A DNA stretch of 64,000 nucleotides. Origin: an uncultured Candidatus Rokubacteria bacterium. Its GTDB lineage: Bacteria; Methylomirabilota; Methylomirabilia; Rokubacteriales; DASRDR01. The notes below the pieces were generated by a model, which saw only the letters and a list, made by a program, of their open reading frames with translations, ran no database searches and was not told where the DNA came from. The stretch covers positions 176,122 to 240,121 of the forward strand of contig CAWGVS010000002.1 of NCBI GenBank assembly GCA_963826115.1, given 5' to 3'. Of the stretch, positions 32,295 through 63,663 are shown piece after piece (the stretch's first letter is position 1; each line of letters begins with the position of its first letter). Made by a program: the position numbers and the translations under genes.

Positions 32295-33620
32295 ATGGAA
32301 CGGCTGGTCCTCGACATCATCCTGCTCGCGACGTTCCTCGGCATCTCGGCGCTCCTCGCCGGCGCGGAGGCGGCGTACTTCTCCCTCTCGCGCCTGGGGA
32401 CCGCGCACCTCGAGCCCGAGGAGACCCCGGGACACGCCCTCCTCGAACGGGTCCTGCGCGATCCGCGGGACCTCCTGATCACGCTCCTGGTCGGCATCAC
32501 GCTCGTGAACATCGCCGCCGCCGCCGTGGCCGCGCAGGTGGCCACCACGCTCTTCGGCCCGCGCGGCATCGGGGTCGCGATCCCGGTGATGGTGTTCCTC
32601 ATCGTCGTGTTCGGCGAGGTGCTGCCGATGACCATCGCCGTCGGGATGCCGCACCGCTTCGGCCTCCTGGTGGCGCGGCCGGTGCTGGCCCTCCAGTGGC
32701 TGCTCACGCCGGTCCGGCTCCTCCTGGGCGCCTTCACCAGCCTCGTCTCGCAGGCGACGGACGGCGAGGGCGGCGTGGCCAAGGCCGCGATCACGGAGGC
32801 GGAGCTCCGCACGCTGGTCGAGGTCGGCCACCAGGAGGGCGTGGTCCAGCGCAAGGAACGGGAGATGATCCACGGGGTCTTCGAGCTCGGGGAGACCACC
32901 GTGGCCGAGGTCATGGTCCCGCGGACCGACGTGTTCGGCCTCGACGTGGCGACGCCGCCCGACCGGCTGCTGCCGTCGATCCGGGCGAACCTCCACCACC
33001 GGGTGCCCGTGTACGAGGGGAGCCTCGACCACGTCCTCGGCATCCTCCTCACGACGGAGCTCCTGCCGTACTACGCGGGGCTGCCGGCCGGCTTCGACCT
33101 CCGGGCCCACCTCACGGCACCCTACTTCGTGCCCCAGTCCAAGCGCGCGGACGCGCTCCTGCGGGAGTTCAAGGCCAAGAAGCTCCGCACGGCCATCGTC
33201 GTCGACGAGTACGGGGGCACCGCGGGGCTGGTCACGCTGGAGGACCTCCTGGAGGAGGTCGTCGGCGAGATCCGCGACGAGTTCGAGGCCGAGGAGCGCC
33301 TGGCCCAGCCGGTGGACGACCGCACGTGGCGCGTCGCGGCCAAGATGGCGATCGGCGACTTCAACGCGGTCACCCGGCTTACCATCTCCGACGAGCACTT
33401 CGACACGGTCGGCGGCTGGGTGCTGGATCTCTTCGGCCGTGTGCCCCACCGGGGCGAGAGCCTCGAGGGCGAGGGCATCCGCGTCACCGTGGAGACCATG
33501 CACCGGAACCGCATCCTCCAGGTCCTGGTCCGCCTGCCGGCCGCCCCCACCGCCGGAAGCCCCGCCCCGGAGGCGGGCGCGGCCCCGAGCGCGCACGCGC
33601 ACCCGGAGGGTGAGGCGTGA
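32295..33620 (+). CDS. CNNM(DUF21)-CBS-CorC/HlyC 'hemolysin family' protein
   Basis: AEAAYFSL, FGEVLP, VMVPRTD, VVDEYGG...EDLLEE and DTVGG motifs. Confidence 0.9.
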   Translation: MERLVLDIILLATFLGISALLAGAEAAYFSLSRLGTAHLEPEETPGHALLERVLRDPRDLLITLLVGITLVNIAAAAVAAQVATTLFGPRGIGVAIPVMVFLIVVFGEVLPMTIAVGMPHRFGLLVARPVLALQWLLTPVRLLLGAFTSLVSQATDGEGGVAKAAITEAELRTLVEVGHQEGVVQRKEREMIHGVFELGETTVAEVMVPRTDVFGLDVATPPDRLLPSIRANLHHRVPVYEGSLDHVLGILLTTELLPYYAGLPAGFDLRAHLTAPYFVPQSKRADALLREFKAKKLRTAIVVDEYGGTAGLVTLEDLLEEVVGEIRDEFEAEERLAQPVDDRTWRVAAKMAIGDFNAVTRLTISDEHFDTVGGWVLDLFGRVPHRGESLEGEGIRVTVETMHRNRILQVLVRLPAAPTAGSPAPEAGAAPSAHAHPEGEA

Positions 33621-34906
33621 CCCTCGGCGCGACGCTCACGATCGTCTTCCTGTGCCTCCTCGCGTCCGCCTTCTTCTCGAGCGCGGAGATCGCGTTCCTG
33701 GCCGCCAACCGCGTCCGCCTCCGCCACCTGGCGGAGCAGGGTCGCCGGGTGGCCCGGGGCTACATGGAGGCGTTCCAGCACCCGGAGCAGCTCCTGTCCA
33801 CCGCGATGATGGGGGTGACGATCGCCCACGTCGTGTCCTCGGCGATGGCGACGGCCGCCCTGCTCCCGTGGGTGGGCGGCCAGGCCTCGCTCTGGGCGAC
33901 GGTGGTGCTGACGCCGCTCATGCTGGTGTTCGGCGAGATCCTGCCGAAGGCGCTGACCCAGCCCCGGGCGACCGAGATCGCGCTCCGCACCTTCGACCCC
34001 TTGCGCGCCGTCGCCTGGCTCCTCGCCCCCGTGGTGGGCCTCGCGAACCTCCTCGTGCGCGCGATCCTGGGTGGCCTCGGTCACGGGGAGCGCCGGGACC
34101 CGTTCGTCTCGCGGGCCGATCTCCGGCTCCTCGTCGAGCGCGAGCCGGACGGCACGACGGACGTCCGCGAGGAAGAGCGGGAGATGATCGAGGGGATCTT
34201 CGATCTCGTGGAGACGTCGGTGCGCGAGGTCATGGTGCCCCTGGTCGACGTCGTCGCCGTGCCCGAGGACGCGACCATCGACGAGGCGGTCGCGAAGGTG
34301 CGGGAGAGCGGGCACTCCCGCCTGCCCGTCTACCGGGAGCGCATCGACAACGTCGTGGGCGTCCTGGCCGCGCTCGACATCCTCGGCCGCGGGGCCGCCG
34401 GCGAGACGCTCCGCACGCTCATGCGGCCGGCCCACTACGTCCCGGCCACCAAGCGCGTCAGCGACCTCCTGCCGGAGATGCAGCGGCGCCGGATCCAGCT
34501 CGCCGTCGTGGTGGACGAGTACGGCGCGAGCCAGGGCATCGTGACGGTCGGGAACGTCATCGAGGAGATCGTGGGTGAGATCCCCGACGACCGCGAGCGC
34601 ACGCCCGCCCAGCTCGTGCGGCTGCCCGACGGGAGCTACCTCGTGAACGGCCGCATGTGGCTCGAGGAGCTGAACGAGGCCCTGGACTGGGAGCTGCCGA
34701 CCAAGAAGGGCTACGAGACGGTGGCGGGGCTGATCCTGGCGTCCCTCGGCCGCATCCCCCGGCCCGGCGAGCAGGTCACCGTCGGCAACTACGAGCTCGC
34801 CGTCGTCGACGCCGACGAGCGTCGCATCCTCAAGGTGAAGGTCCGGGCGCGCGAGCGGAAGGCCGACCCCGCTCCCGCGGCCCCCCAAGGAGGACACCCA
34901 GCATGA
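33617..34906 (+). CDS. CNNM(DUF21)-CBS-CorC/HlyC 'hemolysin family' protein (second paralog)
   Basis: FFSSAEIA, FGEILPK, HSRLPVY, VVDEYG and YETVAG motifs; GTGA overlap. Confidence 0.9.
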   Translation: MTLGATLTIVFLCLLASAFFSSAEIAFLAANRVRLRHLAEQGRRVARGYMEAFQHPEQLLSTAMMGVTIAHVVSSAMATAALLPWVGGQASLWATVVLTPLMLVFGEILPKALTQPRATEIALRTFDPLRAVAWLLAPVVGLANLLVRAILGGLGHGERRDPFVSRADLRLLVEREPDGTTDVREEEREMIEGIFDLVETSVREVMVPLVDVVAVPEDATIDEAVAKVRESGHSRLPVYRERIDNVVGVLAALDILGRGAAGETLRTLMRPAHYVPATKRVSDLLPEMQRRRIQLAVVVDEYGASQGIVTVGNVIEEIVGEIPDDRERTPAQLVRLPDGSYLVNGRMWLEELNEALDWELPTKKGYETVAGLILASLGRIPRPGEQVTVGNYELAVVDADERRILKVKVRARERKADPAPAAPQGGHPA

Positions 34907-35654: not shown

Positions 35655-36119
35655 CTAGGCGCCGCGGGCGGCGGCCGCCGCGGCCTTCCGCGCCTTCTTG
35701 GCTTCCTTGCCCTTCGGCTCGGCGGACTTCTTGCCCTTCTCGGACTTCTCCTTGGGGGCCTCGGGCCGGTCGACCAGCTCGAGGATCGCCAGCGGCGCGG
35801 CGTCGCCCCGCCGGGTCCCCATCTGGAGGATGCGCGTGTAGCCGCCGCGCCGGTCCGCGTAGCGGGCGCCGACGGTGTCGAAGAGCCGGTGCACGACCTT
35901 GACGTCGGGCACCAGGGTGAGCGCCTGGCGCCGCGCGTGGAGGTTGTCCGCCTTCGCGAGCGTCACCAGATGGTCCGCCAGCGGCCGCACGGCCTTGGCC
36001 TTGGCCAGGGTCGTCGTGATCCGCTCGTGGGTGAACAGCGCCGTGAGGAGGTTCCGGAACAGGGCCCAGCGGTGGGCCGTGAGCCGGCCGAGCTTCCAGC
36101 CGTCGCGCCTGTGTCTCAT
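35655..36119 (-). CDS. rplQ: 50S ribosomal protein L17
   Basis: MRHRRDGWKLGR...GGYTRI...RRGDAAP; Lys/Ala-rich tail. Confidence 0.95.
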   Translation of the reverse strand: MRHRRDGWKLGRLTAHRWALFRNLLTALFTHERITTTLAKAKAVRPLADHLVTLAKADNLHARRQALTLVPDVKVVHRLFDTVGARYADRRGGYTRILQMGTRRGDAAPLAILELVDRPEAPKEKSEKGKKSAEPKGKEAKKARKAAAAAARGA

Positions 36120-36865
36120 GCGTCCCTCGAAGACTCCACCGAGGCCGCGGCCGCCGTAGGCTCGTCGTCCTCCTCCTCCGCCCCCGCCGGCGTGAACAGG
36201 TCGAAGTGGTCGCGCAGGAGCTTCGACGCCTGGAGGAAGGCATGGTCCGGGGCGATGCTGCCGTCGGTCGTGATCTCGACCAAGAGTTTCTCGTAGTCGG
36301 TGATGTTGCCGAGCCGGGACATCTCCACCTGGTAGTTCACGCGCCGGATCGGCGAGAACGCCGAGTCGAGGCCGATCGCGCCCGCGGGCACGCTGTCCCC
36401 GTGCCGGTCGGCGGACACGTAGCCCCGGCCGGCGCGGATGCCCACGTCGAGCGTCAGCTTCCCGCCCGCCGTGACGGTGGCCAGGTGGAGGTCGGGGGTC
36501 ACCACCTCGACCCCAGGCCCCGCGAGGTCGGCGCCGGTGGCGGCGCGCGGGCCCCGCACGTCGAGATGGGCCGTGCCCGTCTCGGCGTTGCCGGGAAGCC
36601 GCACGACCAGCTTCTTCATGTTGAGCAGGAGGTTGGCGAGATCCTCCTCGACGCCTGCCACGCGCTCGGCGTTCGCGCTCACGCCCGCGATCTTGACCCA
36701 GACCGGAGCCGTGCCGGGGACCGCCGACAGGAGCACCCGGCGGAGGGAGCCGCCGACCGTCAGCGCGTAGCCCTTCTCGAACGGTTCGGCCGCCATGCGG
36801 CCGAACGTCGGGGTCAGGTTCTCCCATTCGATGCGACGAGGACGCTGGAACATCAACCGCGGCAT
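36116..36865 (-). CDS. rpoA: RNA polymerase alpha subunit, divergent, N-terminal domain only (249 aa)
   Basis: Lies between rpsD and rplQ; EPFEKGY, LRRVLLS, GRGYV, DSAFSPIRRV and TDGSI motifs; stop overlaps rplQ ATG. Confidence 0.9.
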   Translation of the reverse strand: MPRLMFQRPRRIEWENLTPTFGRMAAEPFEKGYALTVGGSLRRVLLSAVPGTAPVWVKIAGVSANAERVAGVEEDLANLLLNMKKLVVRLPGNAETGTAHLDVRGPRAATGADLAGPGVEVVTPDLHLATVTAGGKLTLDVGIRAGRGYVSADRHGDSVPAGAIGLDSAFSPIRRVNYQVEMSRLGNITDYEKLLVEITTDGSIAPDHAFLQASKLLRDHFDLFTPAGAEEEDDEPTAAAASVESSRDA

Positions 36866-36879
36866 TCGTCCGACCTCTC

Positions 36880-37503
36880 TTACTTCGAGTACAGCTCGAC
36901 GATGAGCTGCTCCTGCACCGGAATCTGGATGTCGTCGCGGAGCGGCAGGCTCCGGACGGTGCCCGACTTCTCGGGGGCCGCCAGCTCGAGCCACTGGGGC
37001 ACGTGGCCCCGGCCCGCCGACAGGTTGTCCGTCACCCGGTCCTGGAACTTCGAGGTCGGCCGGAGCCGCACCTGGTCGCCGACCCGCACCAGGAACGACG
37101 GGACCGACACCCGTCGGCCGCTCACCTGGAAGTGCCCGTGCGCCACCATCTGCCGCGCCTCGGCCCTCGAGGCGGCAAAGCCGAGCCGGAACACGACGTT
37201 GTCGAGCCGCCGCTCCAGGAGCCGCAGGAGGTTCTCGCCCGTCACGCCCTTCTGGCCTTCGGCCTGGGCGAAGTAGCGCCGGAACTGACCCTCGAGGAGC
37301 CCGTAGATGCGCTTGGCCTTCTGCTTCTCCCGCAACTGCTGCCCGTACGCCGACTGCTTGGAGCGGCCCAGCCCGTGCTGGCCTGGCGGGTAGTTGCGGC
37401 GCTCGATGGCGCACTTGTCCGTGAAGCAGCGTGAGCCCTTGAGGAAGAGCTTCAGGCCCTCCCGCCGGCACAGCCGGCAGACCGCGTCGTTATACCTGGC
37501 CAA
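36880..37503 (-). CDS. rpsD: 30S ribosomal protein S4
   Basis: [21 protein letters not shown] and LERRLDN motifs; TTG start. Confidence 0.97.
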
Positions 37504-37518
37504 CTTCCATCCTCCTCG

Positions 37519-37923
37519 CTACACCCGGCGCCGCTTGGGTGGGCGGCAGCCGTCGTGCGGGATCGGCGTGACGTCGTGGATCGCCGTGATCTCCAGGCCC
37601 ACCGCCTGCAGCGAGCGGATCGCGGCTTCCCGGCCCGCGCCGGGACCCTTCACGTAGACCTCGACCTGCTTGAGTCCGATCTCCATGGCCTTCCGCGCCG
37701 CCGACTCGGCCGCCATCTGCGCGGCGAACGGGGTGCTCTTGCGCGAGCCCTTGAAGCCCACGCTCCCGGCGCTCGCCCACGCGACCACTCCGCCCATCTT
37801 GTCGGTGAGGGTCACGATCGTGTTGTTGAACGTCGCCTGCACGTGGGCGATCCCCGTGCGGACCTCGCGCCGTTCCTTCTTCTTCCCGCTCTTGCGCGGC
37901 TTGCCGGTCCCCGCTTCAGCCAT
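37519..37923 (-). CDS. rpsK: 30S ribosomal protein S11
   Basis: [18 protein letters not shown] and DVTPIPH motifs. Confidence 0.97.
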
Positions 37924-55253: not shown

Positions 55254-59528
<4,275 letters not shown>

Positions 59529-59654
59529 TCATCGGGGGGTGGTCCCCCCCGCGCCGTCCAACGGGGACGGCCGCCGCCCCGGCGCGCGCGCCGGGGATGC
59601 CCTTCCAACGACCCGCGCTAGGGGCGCCGGGTCGAGATAGCCGCGTCCTGCACG

Positions 59655-63663
<4,009 letters not shown>

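Follow-up and report, generated by a model that had tools for sequence, protein, structure and literature searches.

A C-terminal-domain-less RNA polymerase alpha paralog in the ribosomal protein operon of a Rokubacteriales bacterium, and a second, full-length rpoA elsewhere in the genome

The window analyzed here is a stretch of 64,000 nucleotides from an uncultured Candidatus Rokubacteria soil bacterium (order Rokubacteriales, phylum Methylomirabilota; assembly GCA_963826115.1, contig CAWGVS010000002.1, positions 176,122 to 240,121), and it carries a ribosomal protein operon with a short version of rpoA, the gene for the alpha subunit of RNA polymerase (RNAP) (Table 1). The gene order rpsK-rpsD-rpoA-rplQ is the usual bacterial setting of rpoA, and the translations of rplQ and rpsD match those of relatives at 50-93% and 54-97% identity, respectively (tblastn). 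A preliminary description of the window, made from its letters alone, had placed at this position an alpha of 249 amino acids (aa) with an acidic end, whose TGA overlaps the ATG of rplQ. The open reading frame (ORF), its translation and the ATGA read in the sequence confirm both points for the protein that we call alpha-S, which starts with the ATG at 36865. Because rplQ starts inside the alpha-S stop codon, no DNA remains to encode a C-terminal domain (CTD) in any frame. The same overlap suggests that alpha-S and rplQ are translationally coupled.

Table 1. Features of the rpoA operon locus, in window coordinates.
Feature	Position	Strand	Basis and remarks
rpoA paralog alpha-S (operon copy)	36116..36865	-	ORF and translation; 249 aa, N-terminal domain only, short acidic/variable tail
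Shine-Dalgarno-like GAGAGG	36874..36879	-	Read from sequence; follows the rpsD stop (36882-36880) without a gap and ends 8 nt from the alpha-S ATG
ATGA overlap of alpha-S stop TGA (36118-36116) and rplQ ATG (36119-36117)	36116..36119	-	Read from sequence
rplQ (ribosomal protein L17)	35655..36119	-	ORF; name by position and sequence recognition
rpsD (ribosomal protein S4)	36880..37503	-	ORF directly upstream of alpha-S; name by position and recognition
rpsK (ribosomal protein S11)	37519..37923	-	ORF; name by position and recognition

The domain content of alpha-S is that of an alpha N-terminal domain (NTD). Pfam assigns PF01193 (RNA_pol_L; 67.6 bits for a cut-off of 24, residues 27-221) and PF01000 (RNA_pol_A_bac, the alpha insert domain; 65.7 bits for a cut-off of 33.9, residues 57-171), and PF03118 (RNA_pol_A_CTD) gave no match to the protein at E <= 0.01. 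All NCBIfam rpoA equivalog models match alpha-S over their first ~220-240 positions only and score below cut-off (210.4 bits versus 227.8 for TIGR02027, 220.8 versus 277 for NF003519), and the nearest solved chains are those of Thermus alpha (residues 20-244, E 3e-49). The altered NTD motifs pointed out earlier are real: H66-E67-F/Y68 (the HEF motif) has become A-N-A and N41 is replaced by G, with R44, R45, L48, K86 and K200 still present (E. coli numbering here and below, from rpoA of NC_000913.3).

A second, full-length rpoA was found in the same genome (6.24 Mb in 12 contigs, 99% complete, contamination estimate 5.3%). Its product of 330 aa, alpha-L, is encoded at C2:115659-116651 on the minus strand, ~96 kb from alpha-S, with a ComEC-type competence gene on one side and mltG/yceG followed by an argininosuccinate lyase gene on the other (names from Pfam). 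It contains all three alpha domains, passes the NCBIfam equivalog cut-offs, and shares 37% identity with alpha-S over 236 residues. The genome holds two matches each to PF01193 and PF01000, and exactly one to PF03118, at C2:115746-115925 within alpha-L (95.9 bits when scanning the genome, 92.7 bits for the protein sequence). Three accounts of the missing domain had been proposed: a heterodimeric alpha with a second rpoA elsewhere, a separately encoded alpha-CTD, or a naturally CTD-less polymerase. The gene that the first account predicts is alpha-L, and the pairing of the two products is suggested by the reciprocal loss of motifs described below. The second account is not supported, as the PF03118 scan of this 99%-complete genome revealed no stand-alone alpha-CTD gene. 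A polymerase that is CTD-less as its sole form is unlikely, because a canonical and extremely conserved CTD is encoded in the genome. Weak additional PF03118 matches were seen in large frames outside rpoA in two relatives (G002:C121:2474-2557, 24 bits; G037:C178:2342-2503, 31 bits), and could be helix-hairpin-helix domains of other proteins.

In order to follow both genes through the lineage, we compared the two rpoA loci of 38 relatives from the order and the rpoA locus of seven genomes from other orders, using tblastn and ORF extension on assemblies from varied assemblers and projects. In the following, f1 stands for the family of this genome and f2 to f5 for other Rokubacteriales families, OP for the operon copy and EX for the extra-operon copy. 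Within the genus, all 12 usable relatives have an operon alpha of 247-249 aa flanked by rpsD and rplQ, a count that leaves out the frame-broken G013, while G007 (71% complete) gave no match. The five other f1 genera have operon alphas of 249, 273, 249, 255 and 249 aa, and the sole f4 genome has one of 237 aa, also between rpsD and rplQ. Of the 17 short copies whose stop is intact, 14 have an rplQ match that shares one base with the alpha-S match (the exceptions being G016, G018 and G023). In f2 (16 of 16 fetched loci), f3 and f5, the operon copy has 323-347 aa and a CTD, and the loss of the CTD is therefore a real evolutionary event and not an artefact. The comparison of rpoA lengths that the preliminary description had proposed for the phylum gives, within the order, a short operon copy in f1 and f4, a CTD-bearing one in f2, f3 and f5, and a second rpoA across the order. 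That description had also argued that no frameshift can explain the missing CTD, which the same architecture throughout the genus, the other f1 genera and f4 corroborates; it had taken a full-length rpoA at this position in close relatives as a sign of an assembly deletion, and such copies are absent from f1 and occur only in the sister families f2, f3 and f5.

The short form is also well represented outside these genomes. In a collection of 5.8 billion proteins, the best 120 of the 120 matches listed are 66-88% identical to alpha-S, have 206-268 aa, and carry PF01000 and PF01193 without PF03118. Contigs from independent public runs bridge the alpha-S/rplQ junction (X2 record 26, covering 35686-36211, and X16 records 18 and 19), which answers the earlier call for a read check at this point with contigs of relatives, since the contigs of all four public runs come from such relatives (<=34% of sampled words present). 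X16 is an RNA library whose contigs are no proof of transcription, and the cover gaps of X1 and X15 over alpha-S are uninformative. Two loci were left out of the trees, motif tables and dN/dS estimates given below. In G013 (70% complete, 20 contigs), both alphas are frame-broken, alpha-L being in pieces and alpha-S fused in frame into a 402-aa ORF, which suggests uncorrected indels. Locus L040 (G020:C358:1-2637) holds, at the contig start, a partial alpha that has a canonical CTD and precedes rplQ. This alpha shares only 39% identity with alpha-L, its score (124 bits) resembles those of the outgroup orders, and L040 is probably a foreign contig in this metagenome-assembled genome (MAG), from which we recovered no OP copy.

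The presence of two rpoA genes is a feature of the whole order. Counting NTD matches in published genomes at least 90% complete (thus leaving out the unpublished G038, G062, G081 and G142), we found at least two in 71 of 80 f2 genomes (one in seven, none in two) and in 12 of 13 f1 genomes (one in G015); both paralogs are present in 11 of these 13, the second match of G020 looking foreign. In the other orders of the class, 35 of 37 genomes have a single match and two, G061 and G068, have two. CTD matches number at least two in 16 of 17 f2 genomes (a tally that includes the unpublished G038, which has one), and exactly one in 11 of 14 genomes of the genus, where G002 shows an extra 24-bit fragment and G001 and G007, both ~70% complete, show none.

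Phylogenies were built as a quick tree of 104 rows (genus g1 thinned to five relatives plus this genome, and every third of 112 full-length representatives) and as a more careful LG+C20 tree of 54 rows (28 of 66 OP, EX and outgroup sequences, 26 of 38 representatives), and the two agree. In the LG+C20 tree, OP (100/99) and EX (100/100) each form a clade, the two being sister groups (99/93), with stem lengths of 0.34 and 0.49, respectively, and a subclade of f1 and f4 is recovered in both paralogs (98/92 in OP, 99/98 in EX). A duplication is deduced from this sister relationship and not from nesting within the phylum. The synteny comEC, EX, mltG, argH is kept in f1, f2 and f4, and the adjoining MltG ORF has matches in 33 fetched loci. 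The most parsimonious history comprises a single rpoA duplication at the base of Rokubacteriales, vertical inheritance of both copies, and a single loss of the OP CTD on the stem of f1 and f4. A horizontal acquisition of EX from outside the phylum is not supported, although the deep nodes are weak: the nearest relative of EX is OP in both trees, and the best database matches beyond Rokubacteriales-like ones do not exceed 48% identity. A separate case is G068, from family f10 of an outgroup order, with two full-length rpoA genes 4 kb apart (L085, C3:120000-129400); the second adjoins an extra rpsK, has K191, H197 and R200, groups with the representatives and not with its neighbour copy in the quick tree, and may stem from an independent duplication or acquisition.

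The two paralogs have lost different sets of conserved residues. As a background, we used 117 sequences (109 full-length alphas, i.e., 112 minus P0003, P0062 and P0018, together with seven outgroup sequences and E. coli), and we compared the 55 NTD positions at which the commonest residue reaches at least 75%; H66, E67 and F68 are conserved there at 0.93, 0.95 and 0.85. The 37 OP copies show specific changes at H66, E67, F68, I81 and A112, and mostly also at S50. H66, E67 and F68 are retained in a single one of them, from the apparently single-copy G022, and in the f4 copy the whole ten-residue HEF loop is deleted. The same copies retain K86 (34 of 37), R191, G193 and D197 (37 of 37) and K200 (35 of 37). 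The EX copies show the converse: H66 and F68 are kept in 35 of 35 and E67 in 34 of 35, and all 35 have K86R and K200R, nearly all have R191K and D197G, none keeps G193 (lost or replaced), and L43 is mostly F and L83 mostly M. At the dimer interface, F35Y and S50A/V/I are changes found in OP only, and T38 occurs in all copies; positions 35, 38 and 39 are invariant within the clades, leaving no signal of covariation between OP and EX to test. The only genome of the comparison in which a single rpoA was found, G022 (f3, 73% complete), carries Y35 and A36 as in the OP lineage, yet keeps HEF, K86 and the residues at 191-200, and its alpha looks as a protein still doing both jobs should be expected to look.

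These positions can be read against data on E. coli. There, beta protects alpha residues 30-55 and 65-75 and beta-prime protects residues 175-185 and 195-210, while K86A, V173A and insertions at 180 and 200 weaken beta-prime binding and R45A weakens beta binding, as summarized in work on Francisella (PMC3294249). Residues 186-201 of alpha-II are further described as re-forming into a hairpin and closing on beta-prime (PMC13202282). By this map, OP has dispensed with a motif in a segment protected by beta while retaining the beta-prime elements, and EX has done the reverse. Of the six EX-specific changes, four affect beta-prime determinants (P 0.012 in a hypergeometric test, a rough guide for a post hoc comparison on adjacent sites). 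Since the paralogs lost opposite sets of determinants, we infer an oriented heterodimer, in which EX would be alpha-I on beta and OP alpha-II on beta-prime.

Both proteins bear the marks of constraint. In pairwise NG86 comparisons within the genus, dN/dS is 0.19 for alpha-S (78 pairs, 13 genomes; 0.17 for the core and 0.53 for the last ~20 residues) and 0.065 for alpha-L (65 usable pairs, 12 genomes). Alpha-S is thus under purifying selection, though evolving faster than alpha-L. No OP-specific change is seen at 50 of the 55 conserved NTD positions (two of these 50 are changed in both paralogs), and the label "degenerate NTD" in the preliminary description was overstated: its motif changes stand, but paralog-specific change touches only five of 55 conserved positions and the core is constrained. 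The tail of alpha-S consists of a conserved acidic stretch followed by ~15 variable residues, and the acidic stretch is the start of the ancestral linker, acidic also in f2, f3 and the outgroup. The OP CTD of f2 (e.g., L072 of G036 and L043 of G021) retains R265, N268, G296, K298 and S299, residues presumed to act in DNA binding, and has fixed changes at positions 263, 264, 269, 290, 295 and 300, while the EX CTD is almost invariant. Because of these fixed substitutions, the OP CTD had diverged before its loss in f1 and f4, and since the OP and EX CTDs differ in f2, polymerases of that family would have two different CTDs per enzyme.

The remaining core subunits do not point to a second polymerase. 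The genome has one match for rpoC (PF04997), and rpoB (PF00562) is present as one full copy (window 59353-63663, minus strand) and a partial one at the end of contig C8 (G000:C8:1-3033). The latter encodes the N-terminal 1011 aa, is cut off by the start of C8 and has 97.2% amino acid identity to the window rpoB; we take it for a co-assembled strain variant or haplotig, in line with the contamination estimate of 5.3%, and not for a paralog. With no diverged second rpoB or rpoC seen, both alphas must serve the same beta and beta-prime. The window rpoC (55368-59528, minus strand) is split over three frames, with Rpb1 domains 1-3 in 57714-59528, the end of domain 3 together with domain 4 in 56500-57891, and domain 5 in 55368-57344. 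The two resulting breaks, around 57700 and 57340, probably reflect indel errors of long reads. Such indel-like breaks are the reason why the cross-check of alpha-S against relatives matters. Apart from the RNAP genes, the window contains two tandem overlapping ORFs on the plus strand (32295-33620, 441 aa, and 33617-34906, 429 aa) for paralog-like membrane proteins, presumably CorC/HlyC-like with CBS-type domains as judged by eye.

Taken together, alpha-S is a real CTD-less alpha paralog, and we lean, with reservations, towards a functional protein that acts with alpha-L in an oriented heterodimer like that of Francisella, and whose CTD was lost later, on the beta-prime-side member. According to this scenario, rpoA would have been duplicated in the ancestor of Rokubacteriales, OP staying in the rpsK-rpsD-rpoA-rplQ operon and EX settling between comEC and mltG. 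The two copies would then have split the two roles played by identical alphas in other bacteria, EX keeping the beta-side determinants and becoming alpha-I, OP keeping the beta-prime-side determinants and becoming alpha-II, so that the core enzyme would be assembled on an oriented OP/EX heterodimer. Later, on the branch of f1 and f4, a deletion reaching from the interdomain linker to the start of rplQ would have removed the OP CTD, and the resulting polymerase would have just one alpha-CTD, attached to the alpha that sits on beta. We regard as evenly balanced the further proposal that f1 and f4, abundant soil bacteria, run transcription with an obligate alpha-I/alpha-II heterodimer with its single CTD on the beta-bound alpha, as a bacterial step towards the Rpb3/Rpb11 arrangement, f2 with both CTDs representing the intermediate.

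Several observations weigh against this scenario. R44 and R45 are kept in every OP and EX copy, and as R45 is a key beta determinant, neither paralog has clearly lost the capacity to bind beta. The K86R and K200R substitutions are conservative, and the OP-specific changes fall in beta-protected segments in three of five cases (P 0.28, not significant, again post hoc and on adjacent sites). The roles of the segments come from footprinting of E. coli RNAP quoted second-hand (PMC3294249), and alpha interfaces vary among lineages according to a B. subtilis study. The single-copy status of G022 rests on a 73%-complete genome, and the placement of OP and EX with respect to the phylum's remaining orders has a support of only 40/0.

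The retention of R44/R45 and of most dimer-interface residues (T38 in all copies) in both paralogs, both also under purifying selection, would suit a cell with two polymerase populations, in which alpha-S homodimers form a housekeeping RNAP that has no CTD and is expressed together with ribosomal proteins, and alpha-L homodimers a conventional, activator-responsive one; a weak activity of alpha-1 homodimers in Francisella (PMC3294249) goes in the same direction. We nevertheless consider such a division unlikely. Any homodimer has to contact beta as well as beta-prime, but the near-universal residues that were lost are not the same in the two paralogs, the f4 OP copy has no HEF loop at all, the interface changes F35Y and S50A/V/I are confined to OP, and the only one-copy genome, G022, keeps both sets of residues.

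If the oriented heterodimer is retained, its orientation could still be the reverse, with alpha-S on beta as alpha-I and alpha-L on beta-prime as alpha-II. Alpha-S keeps R45, the operon copy is the beta binder in Francisella (PMC3294249), and the assignment of HEF to a beta contact depends on the second-hand footprinting mentioned above. However, K86, K200 and the 191-197 hairpin are kept in alpha-S and all altered in alpha-L, and residues 186-201 are the alpha-II element that rearranges upon beta-prime binding (PMC13202282), which makes the reverse arrangement quite improbable. It is very doubtful, too, that alpha-S is a decaying relic outside RNAP, kept for the translational coupling of rplQ, or a protein with a new role unrelated to RNAP. 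Its roughly threefold faster evolution relative to alpha-L, its scores below the NCBIfam equivalog cut-offs and the loss of a near-universal motif would be compatible with decay, but the dN/dS of the core indicates constraint at the protein level, nine tenths of the conserved NTD positions are free of OP-specific change, the paralog has been maintained while an entire order diversified, and an ORF serving as a spacer would not conserve K86, the 191-200 hairpin and the dimerisation helices. Finally, an assembly or sequencing artefact of this MAG, which the indel-like frame breaks in its rpoC might have suggested, is ruled out to near certainty as the cause of the CTD loss by the CTD-less gene in all 12 usable genus genomes and six others (five from f1, one from f4), the junction-crossing contigs, the 120 CTD-less matches and a rplQ that starts inside the stop codon and leaves no CTD-coding DNA in any frame.

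Identical alphas (alpha2) are treated as near-universal in bacteria, with Francisella as the cited exception. The Rokubacteriales are a second such lineage, far older and widespread in the environment, in which there are two specialised alphas and one branch has discarded one of its two alpha-CTDs. If the single CTD does sit on a defined side, this branch would be a natural experiment on how many CTDs are needed by UP elements and class I activators, and would also inform on which alpha's CTD matters and on how homodimers become obligate heterodimers after duplication. On the practical side, marker-gene pipelines may treat these genomes inconsistently, because OP fails and EX passes the rpoA equivalog cut-offs.

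We found no prior account of an rpoA duplication or of a CTD-less alpha in Rokubacteria, the matches listed by our search, from which most subscription journals were outside, being only Francisella-related, plastid or unrelated work. In E. coli, RNAP has been engineered to have a core with one CTD-truncated alpha. Such an enzyme likewise combines one full-length and one altered alpha on defined sides, but is a laboratory construct, whereas the arrangement proposed here would have arisen in nature and become fixed in a lineage. These oriented heterodimers of E. coli were reconstituted using R45A (PMC13202282). Chloroflexus and Streptomyces avermitilis resemble Rokubacteriales in having two rpoA genes per genome, but their copies are full length and, by the published description, without drastic changes in the regions for dimerisation or for beta and beta-prime binding (PMC3294249).

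The closest parallel is Francisella, in which the alpha-1/alpha-2 heterodimer was shown biochemically (Mukhamedyarov et al., 2011, PMC3294249). As described there, both cases involve a lineage-specific duplication of rpoA, of which one copy lies inside the ribosomal operon and the other outside it, both paralog branches are accelerated, and the beta and beta-prime determinants differ between the paralogs, implying an oriented heterodimer. They differ in several respects (PMC3294249). Both Francisella alphas have a CTD, while the operon copy of f1 and f4 has none. Francisella alpha-2 lost R45, while both Rokubacteriales copies keep it and show their losses at HEF (OP) or at K86 and 191-200 (EX). 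The operon copy is the proposed beta binder in Francisella and would be the beta-prime binder in Rokubacteriales. Finally, the Rokubacteriales duplication extends over an entire order within an uncultured soil phylum, with a heterodimer that we infer, where that of Francisella is biochemically established.

The scenario also recalls the archaeal and eukaryotic Rpo3-Rpo11 (Rpb3-Rpb11) pair, as outlined in the same work (PMC3294249): an obligate and asymmetric pair of alpha homologs, one on the beta-like and one on the beta-prime-like subunit, with a reduced partner on the beta-prime side. This likeness does not imply a common origin of the asymmetry. Rpo11/Rpb11 has no insert domain and neither partner of the Rpo3/Rpo11 pair has a CTD, whereas alpha-S keeps both domains of the NTD and alpha-L keeps its CTD.

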